A stretch of DNA of 61,809 bases, counting the filler, from Vannella sp. (Eukaryota): assembly GCA_023345925.1 (NCBI GenBank). It is 7 parts of 7 records of this genome, joined end to end, with 100 filler letters (N's around TTAATTAATTAA, not from the genome) between each part and the next. Parts side by side here need not be neighbours in the genome. Positions count along the whole stretch, not along the records: positions 34,678 to 42,247 come from JAJQQN010000631.1; 6 more parts are not named here. The stretch is one strand, 5' to 3'. Of the stretch, positions 3,609-52,143 are shown one piece after another. The translations under genes and the position numbers were made by a program. The number at the start of each line of letters is the position of its first letter. Position 1 is the stretch's first letter. Below the pieces are notes generated by a model. The model had not been told where the DNA came from. It worked only from the letters and a program-made list of their open reading frames with translations, and did not search any database.

Positions 3609-3691
3609 CAGTTTATAAAATGCCAAAGTCCTCCGTTTAATTCGCCCTTGTATTGGCCGATTTAGAATTTAATTCTGTACAAGTCATTATT

Positions 3692-6159
3692 ATGCGGTCT
3701 GGGTGGTTGGTGGTTGGGGTCGTCTTGTTCTCGTTGATGTCGCTGTTGTTGATGGTTTGGACGGAGGAGACTCATCCTGGGCGTGAACGAGATCTGGCTC
3801 TCGAGATGGAGCGTGGAGTGCTGGGTTCAGGAGGTGCTCTTGTGGCTGAGAAGGATCTCGATGAGGATCTGGTCATGCATGGGAACTCAGGAAGCCAGAG
3901 AGAAGTAGTAGACGCATATTTGATGGAAAAGGAAGTCCCTATTGTCTCTGAATTGGCCCTAACCGACTCCACTGCCTCGAATGGAGAGAAGGAAGTTCAG
4001 TTGGGTGATGCTGGCATCATTGGTGGGTCCGAGAAAGCGCCATCTGGAATCTCTTACGGAGTAGAGATGCCTGCGCTATTGAGAAAATGCCTTCAGGCAA
4101 AGGTTCGACTACTTCCATCTCGGTCCGTGTCAGTAGAGGATCTGGAGCTCTCCCAGGCCGACTGGTTCCTTCATTTGGAGTGTAAATCCGAGGAGCATGT
4201 TGATGATGTCGAGAATACGGCCACAGACACGCAGTTCACCCGCCGCATTCCCTTTGTTGTCGATTCGGCAGAGCTTTGGTGGGATTAGCTTCCTCCTACT
4301 GTGGACTTGCACTCACCAGAATGCACAGCTTAGTGGCGCAGTTCTTTCCAGATGATTCAACTGAGGAATGTCGCTTGTCTGTCGTCGCGAGTGAGCTTTC
4401 CGCCCCTTCCTTGGAGGGAGAGGTGGCGGAATACCGCGTTGAAGAGCTCTCTGAGCTTCAAAGCAGGGCTGATTTTTGCTGGCACTGCCAAGGTGAGTTC
4501 ACTGGCCTCCATCCGGCCAAAGCTGACCTCAGAAGCTTGGCTTTACCGGGATCTTCCAACTGCTCAGCATTTCCTCCTTTATGATAACAAAGGAGAGCCT
4601 TTATGGAGAACTACCAATCCATTGGAGATAGTGAGAGGAAACCGTTTGGTAAGTGAGAAATGAAGAAGTGAATAAGTGAATTCCGGATCTCATTCCGGAC
4701 CAGACACTTTGGATCGTCCCTCATCCCGAAGCTGTGAAAGATTATCCCGATTTTCTATCTCAAGCAGGATTCAACGCCTTCTTGGATAGCTCAGAGATGA
4801 AACAGGCGGTTTGGGTGTCGCGAAAGTACGAACCCATCTCCAAAGGAAGCTCTCAACGAGGCTACCGTATCGAGGTGGAGGGTCTAGATGGCGGACAGTT
4901 TGAGCTGGTGGTAGCTTTATACTGGTTTCATTCTTCAAATGAGCCTCACGCCCACAAGGCAGAGCCCATTTTAGTGGGCTCTCACTCTTTCCACGAGTAC
5001 TCTGGCTGTGATTTACATAGAAGCGAAGTGTGGGGTTCACGAAAACTGATACATGTCCACAAAGAAGAGAACAACGATGCAACAGCGCGACCCTTGCTGG
5101 ACTTGATTGTTCCATCGAACCCCCAAAAATGCACTTCCATGAACGAGCCTGGCCGTTGGCTTCGCCATGCTGTTGGAGAGGTCTGCCGGCCTCCTTATTG
5201 CACAGGAGATCTGGCCGAAACGATTATCTCAAAGCCAAGCTGGCAGGGGATCCAAAATGGGTGGGTTTGGGTGCCTTATGCGTGCCACTATCACGCGTAC
5301 AGCCAAACGGACTTCTTGCGTTGTGCAGAGGAGAGGAATGTAGCCTGGATTCATGTAATGGGTGACTCTTTAGCACGAGAGTATGTGGGCTATCTCATGT
5401 CTCTCTTCCACAACGTGGACACCAGCAAGTTCGAATCTGCTGATGTTCAGCTGGGAAGCGGAAAGGACTCAATTCGCCTCACTTTCCAGAGCTGGCAAGA
5501 TGTTATCTTGTTACAACAGGGCGCAAGCAACCGTTCCGGAGACTTTACTGAGACCATGCTTAACCATTGGAACATTCTTGGACCCGGCGCTTCGACCCCT
5601 CTCGAGTTTCCTAAGTATCGCTTAAGCATCCCTGACACAGAAGTGACCCGACCAGATGTGTTTATCATGAATCCTGCAACAGCCTACTCTCTCTTCAAGC
5701 AGACAGAGCCAGTAAGCAGCTGAGTGTGGGAGAGTGTTGCTCATCTTCCTCGGCAGGCATTCCGGTCGTATGTCAAGTCATTTGCTGATATGATGAACCA
5801 TTCCAGCTCTTCAAAAGGATCCCCGCACATCTTCTGGTACCATGCACCGTTCCTCTTTGGAACCGCTCATGAAGGAACTGAGTTCATCACACAAACTCGC
5901 AACGAAAGATTCTCCCGCATTGCACAGTACGGTCACTCCAAACGACTACAAAGAGGCTTAAAGTGACTCACTTCACACTAGGGAGGAGCTACAAGGGACT
6001 AGAGTGAGATACTTTGACAATATGGACTTATCGCAAAGCCGTCCCGAAGAGTCTTGGGACGGTTTGCACTTTCTCAGCGGATACGAAGAGTGGACCGGTC
6101 ATGTGGCTTGCTCATACGTTCAGAGATGGCTGAACGAACTGTTTGGTGAATGCACTTAA
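3692..6159 (+). CDS. Type II membrane SGNH/PC-esterase-like (TBL/NXPE/CAS1-type) putative O-acyltransferase, paralog 1, 5 introns
   Basis: N-terminal signal anchor; W.W.P..C followed by VMGDSLARE (GDS) and C-terminal WDGLHF (DxxH). Confidence 0.7.
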
Positions 6160-6218
6160 GTTCTCTGGAGGAGGTGGCGGGAAGGGCAGGGAAAAGGGAA
6201 TCATTGTGGCGTGGGAGG

Positions 6219-8735
6219 ATGCGGCTGGCGTGGCTGCTCCGGGGATTGGTCCTGTTCTCGGCACTTTCGGTGTTTATGCTGATGCTGGAGGAACAGGATA
6301 CAGGGAGAGAGTCTGCAAAGGTGTTCCAGAAGGCCTTTCGAGGGAGGAAGATGAAGCCCATGTTGGTGGAAGTGCGCGGAGTCGAAAAGGAGGACCCGGC
6401 TCCGGACTTGTCCCAGCTCTCTGACGCTAGGAACACTTTGATCCATCAAGGAGACATGATAAGCTCCTTGAACCCGGGAGAAGAGGCCCCGTTTACTGCT
6501 GAGGACGGGAAAGGTGTTCCTTCGTTGACCTTGAGGGAGATAGAGGCGGATTCCTCCCACATGGACTTGAACCAAGGGAGAAACGATGAACTGAGAGGCG
6601 ATTTGACCATCTCCTTCGAGGTAGAGATGCCTGAATTCCTCCAGAAATGCTCCCGGGCTGTTTTTCGGCTTCTTCCTACTCAGACTCGGCTTATCTCACC
6701 CAATGAGCTCAGCCAACATGACCACTACCTCAACGTACAGTGTAAAGGCACAGTGCCTCCTGACGCGGCCACAAGCATGGCCAAAAGCATTCGCTTTACT
6801 CGCCGCATTCCCTTCATCGTCGATCCTGTGGGACTTTGGTACGCTGGACCTTCAAGTGAGATACAGAGAGTTAACAGAAACTCAGCCTGGAAGCTGCCTT
6901 CTTCCCAGATGAGTCTACAGAGCACTGCCAAGTGAATGTGGTTCGAAGTGACCTTTCTGCTGCTCCGTTGGAAGGTGCTGAGGTGGAGTTTAATGTGGAA
7001 GAACTCTCTATTGACCGGGCAGAGAACGAGTGCGGGATACATTGCAAAGGTGGGTCCTCTGGGATTGTCTCTTTCATAATCTCACTTGGAAAGGTTGGCT
7101 TCATCGGGCGCTTCCGACTGCTCAGCAGTTTCTTCTTTATGATAATGACGGATCTCCGCTGTGGAAGAGTAACAGTCCATTGCAGCTGACAAGAGGAAGC
7201 CGGCTGGTAAGAGAGAAGAAGTGAATAAGTGAATTCCGGATCTCATTCCGGACCAGACGCTTTGGATCGTTCCTCACTCCGAGGTTGTGAAGACCTATCC
7301 CAAGGCGGTGTCCAAAGTGGGCTTCAACGCCTTCTTGGATAGCTCAAAGATGAAGCAGGCGGTTTGGGTTTCGCGAAAGTACGAACCCATCTTCAAGGGA
7401 AGCTCTCAACGAGGGTATCGCATCGAGGTGGAAGGCCTTGATGCAGGCCAGTTTGAGCTTGTTGTTGCGCTGTATTGGTTTCATTCATCAAGTGAACCCT
7501 ACGGGAAAGAGGCAGAACCCATTTTAGTGGGCTCCCACTCCTTCCATCAATATTCTCCTTGTGACTTGAAGAGAAGCGAAGTGTGGGATTCCAGAAAGCT
7601 GATTCATGTCCGCATTGAGCCTCTAAAGAAGGGAAAGAGGGAATCAACGCCTCCATTGGACTTGATTGTCCCTTCAAAGCCTCGAAAGTGTACTTCCATC
7701 AACGAGCCTGGCCGTTGGCTCTGGCATGCACTTGATGAAGAATGCCAACCTCCAATCTGTACCGGAGACCTCTTCGAGTCTCGAATCAGCCAGCCCAGCT
7801 GGCAGGGGGCTCGCAGCGAATGGGTTTGGGTGCCTTACAACTGCCACTACCACGCTTATGACCGGGCGGACTTTCTTCGGTGCGCAAGAGAAAAGGACAT
7901 TTCTTGGATACACGTGATGGGGGACTCTTTAGCTCGCGAATACGCGGCGTATCTGATGTCTCTGTTCGGCAACGCAGACACAAACAAATTCGAGACTGCT
8001 GACGTTCAGCTCGAAGATGGGGGCGACTCTGTGCGCCTTAGCTTCCACTTCTGGCCGGACATCATCTTTTCTAATGAGGGAGAAATCTACCGAGACGCTA
8101 ACTTCACTCGAACCATGCTGGACCACTGGAACATTCTGAAGCCTGGAACTTCAAGTCCACTTGAGTTCTATGAGATGCATGTGAGCTTGCCTGGCACAGA
8201 GAAGACTCGGCCAGATGTTTTTATAATGAACCCAGCGACAGCCTACTCTCTTTACATCCAAACAGAACCAGTAAGTTGAAAGCAGAGATGCATCTTGGTT
8301 CTGCTTCTCACTCTTCTGACTTTTCCACTCTTTGGCAGGCATTCCGATCGTATGTCAAGTCATTTGCTGAGATCGTTGGGCGTTCCAACTCTAGGAAGGG
8401 ATCCCCACATATCTTCTGGTACCAAGCGCCCTTCCTCTTCGGAACTGCTCATCCTGGAACGGAGTTTATCACACAAACTCGCAACGAGAGATTCTCTCGC
8501 ATTGCACAGTAAGGAATGAGAAGTTGGGGAGGAGAGGTGTGCTGATGCTTGGCTTAGAGAAGAGCTTCGGGAAAGTCGAGTGAGGTACTTTGATAATATG
8601 GACTTGTCTCAGAGCCGTCCCTCCGAATCCTGGGATGGATTGCACTTCCTCAGAGGGAAAGAAGAGTGGCACGGGCATGTCGCCAACTCCTACGTCCAAA
8701 GATGGCTCAACGAGCTATTTGGTGAATGCAATTGA
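6219..8735 (+). CDS. Type II membrane SGNH/PC-esterase-like putative O-acyltransferase, paralog 2 (tandem duplicate)
   Basis: Same exon structure and motifs as 3692-6159 (VMGDSLARE, WDGLHF); starts only 59 nt after the paralog 1 stop. Confidence 0.7.
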
Positions 8736-13924: not shown

Positions 13925-16264
13925 TTAGTGCGCCAAGAGAAGCTGGCGAGTAGCATCAAAGCCAATGATGAGCTTGCTGGACTCATCCTTCACAACGCAA
14001 TTGGATTGGAAGACGATTCGCCCTTCTTGCCAGCCGTTGAAGGTTCGCAAGTCGTTGATGACTTGCTGGGAGCCAAAGTAAGGGTGGGATATGACTTGGT
14101 TGTCGTGGAAATCGTGTCCTAAAGTGACGCACTCAAAGCTGTTGATGAGCATGGAGTGCTCTTGGTCCAGAACAAAGCTGAAGACTGCTTGGCACTTTCG
14201 AATGGAAGGCTCAGCAAGGTCTAAGGGGAAGGTCCAGACTCCATTGACACGGATGGGGTGGTAGGGAGTGATTTCAAGCTCTCCCAGTTTCACCAAGTCA
14301 GTCTGGTTGTTCTCGCAAAGGGTCTCGATAACGCATCGCACTGTCGCTTGACGACCAGATCCACTGCGAATGATGTCTCCTTGTTGGATGGCATCGCATC
14401 GCTTCAGGCTGCCATCTGACATGAGGACAAGGGACTGGCCACTGAAGCAAGGATTACTGGAGCAGTGGTATGCATTCATCGAGGAAGGTGCAGAGTAAGA
14501 ACTGGACGAGCCATACGAACTGATGCTGCGTGAAGGCTTTGGTGGTGGCAAGGAAATAAAGATCTCGTCGGTCAAGTCCCGGACCTCATTAAAGAGATGG
14601 CCCCCGTAAAACTGCACGCCAGGGTCCTTGAAGTTATTGCACTGCTGCAAAAGGTGCGCCCTGGCCAGGGAAGGGAGATAATGCCTCCCCCACTTGCTAA
14701 AGTAATCACATTTTGATGTTGCCACTGAAACCTGTCCTTCAGCGTCCTTCAATAACCCCTCTACAAAAGGATCAGAAGCGAATGGACTTGTGCGCGTTGT
14801 TTGAATCCACTTCTTGACAGCCTCATGGATGCTGTCCAGTTCTGACTTGCTGGTAGCAGTGGAGGCGATGCACTCCTGAATCAGATGGACTAAACCCTGA
14901 CGCATAAAGGAGCTTTCTACTGCAAGCGTCCGCTCTTGGATGTCTGCAAGACACAGTTCAGCAGTCAGGCGGTCCGGTTTTTGACCTGGGCTGTATCCAA
15001 GAATAGTGCGATACTCAGCGGTGACGGTGAGCAAAGGTTGCGCTGTGGATTCCTTTCCAGAAGTGGCATTCTTGGGCTTGAGTTCGAAGACAATGTCACG
15101 AGACTGTCCAAAATGGAGAGTCCCAAGAGAGGCAGTCATTCCCCACGACGTAGCAGTCACTGACGGGTGACTTTTGTAACCCACAGCTTCAATTGTGAAG
15201 TCAGATGAAGGCTCAAGAGATAGTGTGACATTCTTGGCCTGGACTGAAAGCAGATTGGAAAGAGCATTCACAAACGCAGTCCCAACAAAGGCGCTGTCGG
15301 GAATGAAGGAATACATTCCGTCACCAACTTGTGCAATCTGCTCCAAAAGCTGGCTTTCCATGTAATAGCCAAAGCCAAACGTGTTGATGGTGCAGCTTAA
15401 TCCGTGCTGATCAAGGTAGCGACGGAGCATGGGAATGTGGCCACGAGGTGGCTCAATGTTAGGCATCCCGTCCGTCAAGATAAAGACCGATTGAAGGCGA
15501 TTGGGCAGCTGGTCTTCTCGAAGAGTGTTCATTCCTTTCTCAAGCCCACCCCAGAGGTTCGTTGAGTCTTCCGTCTGAAGCGCCTTCAGCACCAAGTCAG
15601 CAGCAGCTTTCCCTTCAGGGTTCATGTGAACGAGAGAGAGGACTGTTACAGCCTCAGTACTGTACTTGACAAGAGAGAGTCTGTCGCTTGGCTCTAAAGA
15701 GCTGATGATCGTGGCTACCGCGTGCTTGACCACATCCAAGTACGACAATCCGTGAGATTCGCTCAATCCAGAGGCGTTTTGGAAGGTGGCTTCCGATTCC
15801 ATTGACCCAGAGACGTCAATGACGCAGCAGATGTCAACAGGTGTGCGTTTCCCTTCCATATCAGGCTTCAACGAAGCCAACACGTGAAACCCACCTCCAA
15901 CACTTGGGCTGGAAGACAACTGGAGCTCTATGCCAGAGGGCACGGGCGGGATTAGGATCGGGAGGTTCACGGACGATGCACTGGGTAAGGCTATCGCTTC
16001 AGTAGAGGCTTCAGCGATGATGGCGCCTCCGTTAGGGAGAATCTCTGCGATAAGATCCTTCAGGGCTCGGTTGGGAGCGAGAGAGCTCAAGGACAGGGGA
16101 GTTCTTGTTATGGGGGACGTTGTATTCTTCTTCAACCACGTCTCAATCGCAGATCGCTCGTAAGTGTTCCCTTCCGGATCCACAACAGGGTCTGTCATCA
16201 CCTCGTGGGTCAGCGGGCAGTAGAAGCTTTCAGGGACCGTCTCAGGAGCTGTGTTAGTCACCAT
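13925..16264 (-). CDS. U-box-VWA-Vwaint-Hint (Vint family) protein
   Basis: U-box FYCPLTHEVMTDPV...TYERSAI...SPITR; VWA MIDAS DVSGSM and LTDG; NNFKDPGVQ Vwaint; Hint N-terminus CFSGQSLV, ITPYHP (TxxH), CVTLGH and HPYFGS. Confidence 0.9.
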   Translation of the reverse strand: MVTNTAPETVPESFYCPLTHEVMTDPVVDPEGNTYERSAIETWLKKNTTSPITRTPLSLSSLAPNRALKDLIAEILPNGGAIIAEASTEAIALPSASSVNLPILIPPVPSGIELQLSSSPSVGGGFHVLASLKPDMEGKRTPVDICCVIDVSGSMESEATFQNASGLSESHGLSYLDVVKHAVATIISSLEPSDRLSLVKYSTEAVTVLSLVHMNPEGKAAADLVLKALQTEDSTNLWGGLEKGMNTLREDQLPNRLQSVFILTDGMPNIEPPRGHIPMLRRYLDQHGLSCTINTFGFGYYMESQLLEQIAQVGDGMYSFIPDSAFVGTAFVNALSNLLSVQAKNVTLSLEPSSDFTIEAVGYKSHPSVTATSWGMTASLGTLHFGQSRDIVFELKPKNATSGKESTAQPLLTVTAEYRTILGYSPGQKPDRLTAELCLADIQERTLAVESSFMRQGLVHLIQECIASTATSKSELDSIHEAVKKWIQTTRTSPFASDPFVEGLLKDAEGQVSVATSKCDYFSKWGRHYLPSLARAHLLQQCNNFKDPGVQFYGGHLFNEVRDLTDEIFISLPPPKPSRSISSYGSSSSYSAPSSMNAYHCSSNPCFSGQSLVLMSDGSLKRCDAIQQGDIIRSGSGRQATVRCVIETLCENNQTDLVKLGELEITPYHPIRVNGVWTFPLDLAEPSIRKCQAVFSFVLDQEHSMLINSFECVTLGHDFHDNQVISHPYFGSQQVINDLRTFNGWQEGRIVFQSNCVVKDESSKLIIGFDATRQLLLAH

Positions 16265-16427
16265 AAGAGCTAATTATCGAATGGATTCCCACAGCAAGCA
16301 GACCTCCGCCATTCTCCAAGTCTTCTTAGAGGAAACCTCTCGTTGCTGAAACAGAATAAACCCAGAATGAAAAGTTCCACAAACCTACTTTTCCAGGAAT
16401 TTTTGGAGTAAAGTTTGTTCAGTCGGG

Positions 16428-28961: not shown

Positions 28962-29170
28962 CAGCCAGAGAGAAGAATGAAACTGCCCAAAGGCTGTCCT
29001 CACCCATTTCCTGGAACTTCTCATTCGCCCCTTTGCATAATGAAGCTGCCAACCAACTGTGTTTTGGAATGTGGCTAAATTACTGTTTTCAAAGGCTCAT
29101 TTGCAAATGGCTCGGTTTTGGGAGGGGGAAAGTCAACGCTTTTCTGGCTCCATTGTTTGTTTGATTGGTG

Positions 29171-29800
29171 ATGAGGAGTGTTGTCCTTTTGGCTATCTTT
29201 GTTGCTGTTGTGGTGGCGGATGGGTGTCCACCGGTGGGTACCCAGGCTGATTTCAATGTGACCTCGTTTGTGGGGAAGCCTTGGTTTGCGCAGATGGCTC
29301 AGCCTGTGGTGTACTTGACGCCGAATGATCTGTACTGTGTGAGAGCGTCGTATAACTTGACCTCTCCCACGACTGTGGCGGTCAACAACTACGCCAATGT
29401 GGGCCAAATCAACGGACCTGTGAAGGGAGGAGACCTTTGTGCTGTCATTAAGGATCCCTCAGACCCCGCTAAGCTCTCTGTTGGTCCCTGCGAGCTTCCA
29501 AGCAACTTCTACGGCCCCTACTGGGTGGTATTTGCCGGTCCCTCTCCCTCCAACTACGAATACGCCATCATAAGCGGCGGCCAACCTTCCGTTAACACAG
29601 GCAAAGGATGCCGCCCTGGTTATGGTGTGAACGCGTCAGGCATCTTCCTCTTCTCCCGCACCCAAGTCGCTCCCACCCAACAAGTGAACATGCTTGTCGC
29701 CCAATGCGCCCAGCTTGGCTTTGATACGTCCATCCTCCGTCCCATTGAACAGCGTGGATGTGTTTACCCTTCTCTAATACACTTCCCCTCGCCCGCGTGA
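29171..29800 (+). CDS. Secreted lipocalin (ApoD-like), paralog 1
   Basis: Signal peptide; DFNVTSFVGKPWF, YWVV, YEYAIISGG, LFSR lipocalin motifs. Confidence 0.85.
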   Translation: MRSVVLLAIFVAVVVADGCPPVGTQADFNVTSFVGKPWFAQMAQPVVYLTPNDLYCVRASYNLTSPTTVAVNNYANVGQINGPVKGGDLCAVIKDPSDPAKLSVGPCELPSNFYGPYWVVFAGPSPSNYEYAIISGGQPSVNTGKGCRPGYGVNASGIFLFSRTQVAPTQQVNMLVAQCAQLGFDTSILRPIEQRGCVYPSLIHFPSPA

Positions 29801-29863
29801 TGGAAGCTCCGAACTTCGGGCGTTACGTTGGTCAGAAGACTTCCTTCAGTCGTACAACTCCGC

Positions 29864-30481
29864 ATGAACGGTAAGTGCTTGTACGTGGCTCTGTTTGTAG
29901 TGCTTGTGGGTGGCTCGTGTCCCGTGGTGAACGTGCAGGATGGCTTCAACGTGACGCAGTACGTGGAAAGGCCTTGGTTCGCTCAGATGCAGATGCCTGT
30001 TACGTACCTTCCCCTGGATGGCTTCTTCTGCGTAGCAGCCAACTACACACCTACAGGACCTAGCTCTATCAACGTGTACAACTACGCGAACAAGGGCGAG
30101 GTGAATGGTCCCGTCACTGGTGCGAAGCTTTGCGCTGTCATTCCTGATCTGTCTGTGCCTGCTAAGCTCTCTGTGGGACCTTGCCAGCTACCTTCGTTCC
30201 TATATGGAGCCTACTGGGTTGTCTTTGTCGGCCCTGATCCCGCCAACTACGAGTACGCGTTGGTCAGCGGAGGACAACCCACCATTGAGACTGGGAAAGG
30301 CTGTACCACTGGTTCTGGCAGGAGTAACTCAGGCCTTTGGATCCTTACGAGGAGTAGCACCGTATCGCCTACACTGATCGATCAGATCCTCTTGCAAGCA
30401 GCCGCTCTTGGCTTTGACACCTCCGTCCTCGTCCCTGTCGTCCAGCAAGGATGCTTGTTCCCTCCTCCCTTCTCGTCCTAG
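29864..30481 (+). CDS. Secreted lipocalin (ApoD-like), paralog 2
   Basis: Tandem paralog: FNVTQYVERPWF, YWVV, YEYALVSGG, LWILTR. Confidence 0.85.
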   Translation: MNGKCLYVALFVVLVGGSCPVVNVQDGFNVTQYVERPWFAQMQMPVTYLPLDGFFCVAANYTPTGPSSINVYNYANKGEVNGPVTGAKLCAVIPDLSVPAKLSVGPCQLPSFLYGAYWVVFVGPDPANYEYALVSGGQPTIETGKGCTTGSGRSNSGLWILTRSSTVSPTLIDQILLQAAALGFDTSVLVPVVQQGCLFPPPFSS

Positions 30482-37121: not shown

Positions 37122-37149
37122 AACCCTAAACCCTAAACCCTAAACCCTA
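37122..37149 (+). repeat. (CCCTAAA)x3-4 telomere-like/telo-box tract in a bidirectional promoter
   Basis: AACCCTAAACCCTAAACCCTAAACCCTA ends 6 nt before the ATG at 37156. Confidence 0.85.
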
Positions 37150-37155
37150 GCCTCA

Positions 37156-38853
37156 ATGTTGGCGTGTATTGCTTTCACTCTCGTCCCTTGGAGGATGCGG
37201 TTTCCCGATTCTGCTCAAATAGAAAAGTTGAACAAAGTGGTGATCGTCCCATTTTTTTCTGGATGGGAGACAGGGGGCTGTCTCCGCTTGACGAGCACCG
37301 CAATGCTGTGCAGGGGTCGCTTTACAGCCCAAAGAACTTCTCAGATGCAGTTCTCTTCTTGGAAAAGTTTCCGAGCTATCTGAACGTTTATGTGAGGAGG
37401 GAGCCATCAGACTCTTCCTCGCTAAAGGGCCTCGCGTGTTTAACTCCACCATCAAGTGATTAAGAAACTGACATGCATGTAATTAGGAAGTATGCATGGG
37501 ATTGTCGCCCTAAACCTCGGTTCGTGCCATGGTAGAGTGTTAATCGATTGGGGATGTCTTTAGGGGGTCGGTTGCTCATTGATTCCTCCTCCTCTCTCAC
37601 CATTCTGTGCAGGAGGTGAGTGATCTATCGTTCGAGAACAGGCGAGATAACCAGTACCCCACTCGAAGGAAGTAAGTTACATCCTCTATGAACAAGCAAG
37701 ATGGTCAGTGTCTGACCAGAACGTATTGTAAAGGAGGTAAGATTCGGAACTATCCAACTCATCTTCCATCTTCTCAATGAGTTTCAGAACGTAAGTTTGA
37801 GAGAAGTTGAGCTCTTGCTGAGAGTATCAGGGGGTGAGTGCGAGCAGCCAACAACTCTGTGCTTGCCTCACTCGATTCTATTGTAGTGGGTGAGTGAGCC
37901 ATGGCATTTGGTATTCGGCGGCAGAACAAACCATTGTGCCAGACATTCCTGGGCATCGCTTGTGGACAGGGAATTACAGAGAACGTGGTTCGTTTGCTCT
38001 CTTATCGTGGCATTGATGTCCAAAAGGGAGTGAGACAGGACCAAACTTTTTGTGACATGTTTACTGATGCAATCGGATAGAGAGTAAGAAATCAAGCCTT
38101 TGACTTCCGCAATACTGAGGCCATGTCGTAGGAAGTAAGCTTGATTCTGGATGACTGTAACTCACCGATTTATAGAGAGTGAGTGGTTACCCGACCAGAG
38201 AATTGCCCTCTCGCTGATTTCCTCCATAGAGAGTAAGTTATGGCCGTTTATGATCCCTTCTCACAAAAATAGGAAGTAAGTGGTCGACCTTACCTAACAA
38301 TCTCCAGGAAGTTCTTAATTCTTGATATATTGTAGTATGTGAGTTGCTGCACCATCCCGAAACTGAAGTGTATCCTCTGACATGGACATTCTTAAGGGGG
38401 TAAATAAGAAAGAAAGCAAGCTCTTCAAAGTCTGACCTGTGTAGGTGGTAAGGATGTTATTTAGGAGGGACCAGTGAAAGCCTCTGAATGAAATCTCAGT
38501 GTGTAAGTCATATTTCTCTCTTCAAAGCAAATCCTCAAAGGCCCTATAGTTTGTAAGTTTCTCTCTGCTGTAAAGGAAGAGTTGAGTGCTTATGTAAGGT
38601 CAAAGAGCCCTTTGGACTTGGCTATGATCCACAAGAAACACCATCTCATCCCATTGCTTCTTGCCGCTGGATGTCGTTGCATCACTGTAATCCCTCCGTT
38701 ATTCCCATCCGTCACTGACACCTCATGTAGGAAGGCAGACACCTCGAAAAGTTCTCCATTCAGAACGTCCCAAAGCCGATCAAGAAAGTCAGCTTTTTCA
38801 GGAGGGCCATTTCATCTCTGAAGCCGCCAAGAGAAGAACAACAGGAACCCTAA
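37156..38853 (+). CDS. Small ankyrin-repeat protein whose two hairpin loops are encoded by 18 single-codon microexons
   Basis: Exons 37156-37163, 37223-37391, eight 3-nt exons (37487-37889), 37943-38029 (TFLGIACGQG...LLSYRGIDVQKG), ten 3-nt exons (38081-38552), 38606-38686 (SPLDLAM...LLLAAG), 38731-38853; all GT-AG, frame maintained. Confidence 0.85.
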
Positions 38854-51702: not shown

Positions 51703-51802
51703 NNNNNNNNNNNNNNNNNNNNNNNNNNNNNNNNNNNNNNNNNNNNTTAATTAATTAANNNNNNNNNNNNNNNNNNNNNNNNNNNNNNNNNNNNNNNNNN
51801 NN
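51703..51802. other. Assembly spacer
   Basis: N run with TTAATTAATTAA. Confidence 0.97.
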
Positions 51803-52143
51803 CCTTTGTTTGGGGTTCGATGGATTCTGGAAGCACTCCCCTTCACTATGCAGCGCTCAGAAAGGATGCTCGCTTTGTTCGCTTCTTGATCCACCAAGGA
51901 CTCGCTGTCGATTCCCGCAATGTCTATGGAGAAACCCCTCTCCATTGGGCCGCCAGAGCTGGGCATGTTGACACATTTAGTCTCCTTCTTTCTTTCGGAG
52001 CGGATCTGAAGAAGCTGGACACAAGTCTGAAATCGCCCCAGGATTGGGCCTTGGAGGAAGGTCAAACTCATCTTATTCGCCTTCTTCACCCCAGAAAGGA
52101 CAGATCCTGGACCCGTTTCTGGAGCTCCTCTGTTTCCAAGTGA
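51803..52143 (+). CDS. Ankyrin-repeat protein (intronless here, probably 5' truncated)
   Basis: GSTPLHYAA, NVYGETPLHWAA, KSPQDWA. Confidence 0.85.

Follow-up and report, generated by a model that had tools for sequence, protein, structure and literature searches.

In the truffle Tuber, the NACHT-ankyrin (nank) genes are reported to vary their sensor domain through alternative splicing of 3-bp mini-exons (work cited in PMC4986451, PMC9815663, PMC13449251, PMC10197012, PMC3689799). The Drosophila gene sowah has annotated 3-nt exons, GGC (G) and TAT (Y), that are listed as constitutive in the supplementary tables (PMC8042270 Tables S4, S5). The micro-exon genes (MEGs) of Schistosoma carry symmetrical micro-exons; skipping them keeps the frame and yields variants (PMC4015677). 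Among proteins, an N-terminal cap, one internal repeat and a C-terminal cap form the minimal layout of designed ankyrin proteins (PMC8683736), and the hairpins between repeats are part of the binding face of ankyrin domains (PMC4986451).

Here we describe an ankyrin gene with two arrays of single-codon exons (cassettes) in Vannella sp., an amoebozoan. It lies in a window, by which we mean the whole stretch of DNA analysed, of 61,809 nucleotides including filler, where a sequence-only reading had drawn attention to the second array. Judged from its sequence, the gene structure is real and unusual: codon-sized exons occur in a minimal ankyrin scaffold that stands alone, the introns have diverged fully, and array 2 offers about twice the codons that its hairpin normally takes.

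The predicted gene and its surroundings

The window is gene-dense, with about 50% G+C and short spliceosomal introns. Next to the cassette gene lies a divergently oriented gene for 3-hydroxyisobutyrate dehydrogenase. The closest relatives of this enzyme are environmental proteins (66-81% identity), P0002-P0005 among them at 75-81%, the first named matches come from Acanthamoeba (57%) and Balamuthia (59%), and a quick one-gene tree built with 69 of the 120 matches placed it in an open group that also holds Acanthamoeba and Balamuthia. Four perfect copies of the telomere-like heptamer AACCCTA, possibly a promoter element, lie between the dehydrogenase and ankyrin genes (37122-37149).

The full predicted model comprises 157 codons in four larger exons and two arrays, with all junctions in phase 0 (Table 1). 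Cassettes make up 54 of the 471 coding bases (11%) and are confined to two hairpins; both arrays fall exactly in the hairpins between predicted ankyrin repeats. Exon 1 ends in phase 0 at a GTGAG donor, and a GTAAT donor, a CTGAC branch and a TAG acceptor suggest the junction of the last exon. By eye the predicted N-terminus is polar, with no evident signal peptide. The tail includes K-K-V-S-F (38782-38796, + strand), which we take to resemble the RVxF docking motif for protein phosphatase 1 (PP1); the motif is short and the likeness may be due to chance.

Table 1. Features of the cassette-bearing ankyrin gene, with positions along the window.
Feature	Positions	Strand	Basis or remark
Predicted exon 1, 43 codons; likely N-terminal capping repeat	37263..37391	+	Sequence, translation
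Array 1, eight single-codon cassettes E,G,E,E,E,N,G,W	37392..37942	+	Cassettes within 37487-37889
Array 1 cassette starts	37487 E, 37564 G, 37613 E, 37669 E, 37734 E, 37788 N, 37831 G, 37887 W		
Exon 2, 87 nt, helical body of internal ankyrin repeat	37943..38029	+	Matches to natural ankyrin repeats
Array 2, eleven introns of 40-60 nt and ten single-codon cassettes	38030..38605	+	Splice-motif reading, shuffles
Pre-glycine cassettes, six: R,E,R,R,E,Y	38081..38338	+	Usual register takes three or four
Pre-glycine cassette starts	38081 AGA, 38132 GAA, 38176 AGA, 38230 AGA, 38273 GAA, 38336 TAT		
Glycine cassette GGG, G-x-S-P-L turn	38397..38399	+	AAG acceptor, GTAAA donor
Post-glycine cassettes, three: V, C, F	38445..38552	+	Usual register takes one
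Post-glycine cassette starts	38445 GTG, 38500 TGT, 38550 TTT		
Predicted exon 3, last (C-cap-like) repeat, begins S-P-L	38606..38686	+	Weak PDB ankyrin-chain matches
Predicted last exon, basic 40-residue tail and TAA stop (38853)	38731..38853	+	Putative junction

We compared the larger exons with protein families, structures and sequence collections. Exon 2 matched ankyrin repeats of six natural proteins with E values from 3.7e-12 to 8.5e-4, and none of the three single exons scanned against Pfam had a match. In the PDB, nothing matched exon 1, and exon 3 gave weak matches to ankyrin chains (E 0.79-7.7). Exon 2 had two weak matches there, one to the repeats of MYPT1 (E 0.32) and the other to SDE2, which is not an ankyrin protein. 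MYPT1, the best of these and non-significant, is a PP1 regulator. The protein is likely a stand-alone three-repeat protein, predicted to consist of a cap, one internal repeat and a second cap.

Searches for spliced orthologues found none among 1480 candidates, for which the three-exon alignment made a poor profile, and none among the seven matches of a two-exon profile (exons 1 and 2) in 1.84 billion representatives. Six of these seven were unrelated multi-repeat ankyrin proteins aligned through the exon-2 part. The seventh was P0122, the window's own unspliced 59-residue read-through; gene finders would overlook one-codon exons such as these, and the protein collection's entry for the stretch is this read-through. 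A three-cassette pattern returned 12 viral loci, all of which we read as tandem repeats from their regular spacing, while patterns of the G/x/T-P-L type (slashes mark splice junctions) returned 5 viral and 42 metagenome loci, none then followed by an exon that looked ankyrin-like by eye. Both the cassette-pattern and the profile searches are insensitive, and most relatives would escape patterns as exact as these.

As an internal control, the window also contains another small ankyrin gene (51799-52140, + strand; Pfam Ank E 7e-18). Its hairpins are uninterrupted, so within the window the cassette layout is special to the first gene. The 5' end of this second gene runs into an assembly gap. Elsewhere in the window there is an intronless 782-codon frame (13925-16273, - strand), whose start looks U-box-like by eye and is presumably followed by a VWA domain and an end of the Hint type. 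Two tandem paralogous gene pairs were noticed by eye in the ORF list (3641-8279 and 29165-30481, both + strand), the latter of which we take to be lipocalin-like.

Cassette anatomy and the register of the hairpin

Array 2 holds ten AG/codon/GTRA cassettes in the order R,E,R,R,E,Y,G,V,C,F. The sequence-only reading had listed ten microexons here, and all were found where it had placed them, with AG before and GTRA after; its 29-codon length for the constant exon upstream (87 nt) and its recurring junctions (ATAG/AGA/GT three times, TAG/GAA/GTAAG twice) were likewise confirmed. The donor is GTRAG in nine of the ten cassettes, with the glycine cassette using GTAAA, AG precedes all ten, and a branch-like pentamer is present in 8 of the 11 introns. 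Each cassette is 3 nt long, in phase 0 and not a stop codon, such that any subset stays in frame. In 2000 dinucleotide shuffles, the mean count was 0.48 cassettes and the maximum 4. The densest 600-nt stretch of the window contained 11 AG-N3-GTRA sites, and other AG-GTRA spacings (0-12 nt, both strands, whole window) never exceeded 3 per 600 nt. No further codon-cassette array was found elsewhere in the window.

Two other identities for this stretch were rejected. Ordinary coding sequence is at odds with the lack of any ORF of at least 100 aa spanning array 2 on either strand, except one starting at 38507. As for a structured or non-coding RNA, the one Rfam match had an E value of 0.92, far below threshold, and the whole of array 2 folded no better than its shuffles (z +0.74).

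The V cassette reads TAG/GTG/GT (38440-38452, + strand), with a GT directly after the acceptor. This GT could, speculatively, act as a weak donor after upstream splicing, and V would then be lost by re-splicing. In array 1, the first two cassettes have weaker donors (GTATG, GTCGG). The first two introns of that array are longer than the rest, at 95 and 74 nt (37392-37563, + strand), and enclose weak cassette-like sites at 37453 and 37536 that are perhaps decayed cassettes. Candidate extra cassettes at 37536, 37720 and 38308 were left out of the model for their poor donors and their spacers of 11-25 nt.

The number of codons that the hairpin takes was estimated from 678 distinct repeat units, cut out by regular expression from 120 natural proteins that all came from one search around P0124, a set biased to relatives of one protein. 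In the 430 units anchored on a D-V-N-like motif, the place of array 2 is filled by five residues in 289 and by six in 96; rarer cases are seven residues (9 units), 8-16 (9 units) and fewer than five (27 units), and ten residues occurred in none. The sequence-only reading had allowed for only four further codons. The register instead calls for five (or six), since the 29-codon exon is one residue longer, through an insertion, than the 33-residue ankyrin consensus has it. Its claim of a surplus holds in that the array offers more codons than the register takes, but the size of the surplus is about five codons, not six.

The position of the glycine cassette is also informative. Natural units have the turn G two residues before T/S in 570 of 678 cases and four before, with none closer, in only 2 of 678; three hydrophobic residues directly before T/S are never seen (0/678). 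In the single place between G and T/S, V, C or F is present in 78 of the 570 units. We also scored all 576 distinct isoforms of array 2 on an ankyrin profile made from 300 two-repeat units, where bits measure how typical a loop is rather than its ability to fold. The 20 top isoforms were all five codons long, the last two being G and then V, C or F; in the best-scoring ones, three pre-glycine codons stood ahead of this pair. The best isoform reached 33.3 bits, which supports the ankyrin build, whereas the isoform with all ten codons scored 20.3 bits and ranked 564 of 576. The same test was flat for array 1 (14.6-17.6 bits) and does not tell loop lengths apart there; the form with all eight codons ranked 10 of 100 at 15.8 bits. 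The menu-like ordering around the glycine that had been proposed is thus borne out by the place of the G and by the top isoforms, and, on the predicted exons, the loop surplus is about two-fold and ordered around the turn glycine.

Origin and possible use of the cassettes

The introns bear on both the age and the use of the arrays. Their bodies had been described as different, and an all-versus-all alignment of the gene's 21 introns agrees: kinship is not detectable, with z averaging 0.16 over 210 pairs and reaching 3.75 for the best of them. The background for comparison was a set of 41 introns from other parts of the window, called by a heuristic (filter 38-75) and 41-73 nt long. Within array 2, positional identity departs from this background only in bases -6 to -3 of the acceptor (p 0.014, uncorrected). 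Acceptors of array 2 are enriched in TAG (8/10 against 8/41 in the background) and ATAG (5/10 against 3/41). In base composition, too, the array introns differ, with 41% GC against 51%. The suggestion that the cassettes arose by tandem duplication fared less well than the anatomy: the repeated codons and the enriched ATAG fit it weakly, but the array introns are AT-richer and their bodies carry no trace of shared ancestry. An old duplication of codon-plus-intron units is plausible, if unproven. A recent tandem duplication or satellite was rejected because no tandem repeat was found within the gene and the intron bodies are unrelated.

Amid intron bodies at background identity, all 40 invariant splice bases of array 2 are intact in 10 of 10 cassettes, and the chance of their survival without selection is 1.3e-4 even at 80% identity per base. 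The cassettes are therefore likely under selection to be spliced. It follows from the sequence that they are likely in use and kept spliceable by selection, which equally fits constitutive and alternative use.

The reading we prefer, and to which we give an even chance, is that the ten cassettes are real one-codon exons and that the spliceosome skips varying subsets of them, giving in-frame proteins that differ in hairpin length and side chains. The gene would be transcribed and each intron presumably removed by intron definition; joining a donor to a later acceptor would then drop codons without a frameshift. Alternatively, inner introns could go first and a block of codons be removed afterwards. 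Forms with three or four pre-glycine codons, G and one of V, C and F would be expected to fold in the usual register. The hairpin variation is predicted to alter part of the binding surface, and selection would keep the surplus of codons if the variants bind different partners. As every subset is in frame and no cassette is a stop codon, skipping would be costless at the mRNA level. There are 576 distinct loop strings for array 2 and 100 for array 1, or 30 and 6 in the five-residue register. Weighing against skipping, the pre-glycine codons repeat one another (R, E, R, R, E), so that a library would have little to choose from, and intact splice signals are equally predicted by constitutive use.

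A bolder version of the skipping reading, which we consider doubtful, is that this one amoebozoan gene encodes a natural DARPin-like library in which splicing picks hairpin residues codon by codon and position by position in both hairpins. Such a library might offer about 30 x 6 in-register loop pairs, and up to 576 x 100 with free skipping; that it represents an old, selected recognition device outside NLRs and outside fungi is similarly a rather unlikely, tentative proposal.

The main rival is that all ten codons are constitutive and form one fixed ten-residue finger, with any skipping being background noise. This is a serious minority possibility, and we see as somewhat improbable, to the same degree, the history that goes with it, in which old intron-plus-codon duplications lengthened the hairpin residue by residue. 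The splice signals are all intact and near consensus, as constitutive splicing would have them, and the repeated codons (AGA three times, GAA twice) fit duplication. Long loops at this place do exist, with 8-16 residues in 9 of the 430 natural units and in engineered LoopDARPins that carry a long loop at this turn (PMC6977956); the single-codon exons of sowah are constitutively spliced as tabulated (PMC8042270). The hairpin could be lengthened on both strands by the surplus residues, three ahead of the glycine and two behind it, and the array 1 profile shows no preference for a short loop. The reference units nonetheless argue against a ten-residue finger, in its length (0/430), in a G four residues before T/S (2/678) and in three hydrophobic residues before T/S (0/678), as does the rank of the all-ten isoform (564 of 576). 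Ten consecutive 3-nt exons would, moreover, each need near-perfect inclusion. If the codons are constitutive, these ten exons are joined faithfully between introns of 40-60 nt, a hard case for splice-site recognition.

The sequence-only reading had proposed that the cassettes may serve as position-specific alternatives. We regard as quite improbable a strict menu of that kind, in which mutually exclusive splicing would deliver exactly one of V, C and F together with a fixed number of pre-glycine codons. Dscam-type mutually exclusive arrays depend on docking/selector RNA pairing, steric crowding or frame-based exclusion, and none of the three was found in the cassette gene. The order of residue classes around the G and the profile ranking are what such a menu would give. 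However, the spacer introns (40-60 nt) are of ordinary length, within the range of the 41 background introns, and with all subsets in frame the decay of faulty mRNA cannot police the choice. No docking/selector pairing for V, C and F was found among the 55 intron pairs of array 2, where the two strongest duplexes (z about -3.5, each with an uncorrected p of about 0.01) would loop out other blocks. Since no device forcing a one-of-three choice was found, probabilistic skipping is favoured over a strict menu; the choice among cassettes is more likely probabilistic, by free or biased skipping, than strictly one-of-n.

Very improbable, finally, is one fixed five- or six-codon form with silent leftover cassettes, or an origin by chance or assembly artefact: the extra AG-NNN-GT sites with poor donors inside introns (37536, 37720, 38308) could be decayed cassettes but are about as many as chance would give, the signals of silent cassettes would have decayed as intron bodies drifted whereas the 40 invariant bases are intact, the shuffles exclude a chance origin of the motifs, and the stretch holding array 2 is without gap or tandem repeat.

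Comparison with known systems

If skipping is real and selected, splicing would edit a protein-binding surface at single-residue resolution, which in the accessible part of the literature is known only from truffle immune-type receptors. The mechanism would then be more widespread and not tied to NLRs, since a distant lineage would use it in a small ankyrin protein that stands alone and whose gene has old, fully diverged introns. The literature searched, largely non-subscription, gave no report of a codon-exon array in an amoeba.

DARPin libraries are randomised at sites that include the hairpin x positions of D-x-x-G-x-T. In its predicted order of N-cap, internal repeat and C-cap, and in possible variation on the binding surface, the cassette gene resembles such libraries (PMC8683736, PMC6977956). 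DARPins are engineered at the DNA level, with many residues per site and helix positions included, whereas in the cassette gene splicing would be the source of any variation, drawing on few kinds of residue and altering the loop length. With the Schistosoma MEGs the gene has in common symmetrical, frame-preserving micro-exons, the cassettes all being 3 nt long and in phase 0. In MEGs, however, micro-exons are described as making up as much as 75% of the coding sequence, mostly of secreted proteins (PMC4015677), in contrast to 11% of coding bases in two hairpins of a folded domain here. The sowah gene resembles array 1, which ends G/W/T-F-L, in using single-codon exons for G and the next residue, but its single-codon exons are few and lie among long animal introns, with no reported surplus.

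The closest precedent for the cassette gene is the nank family of Tuber. Both have runs of 3-bp frame-preserving exons in an ankyrin gene, in what is presumed to be the recognition domain. The nank genes belong to an NLR family that has expanded, encode a NACHT domain and are reported to be alternatively spliced, whereas the Vannella gene encodes a predicted 157-aa stand-alone three-repeat protein, its introns are fully diverged and its splicing is predicted. It has no NACHT domain, the 157 codons between the divergent dehydrogenase gene and the stop at 38853 leaving neither room nor an ORF for one. By analogy, the cassette gene may work like the nank genes of Tuber while, without a NACHT domain, not being a member of that family.
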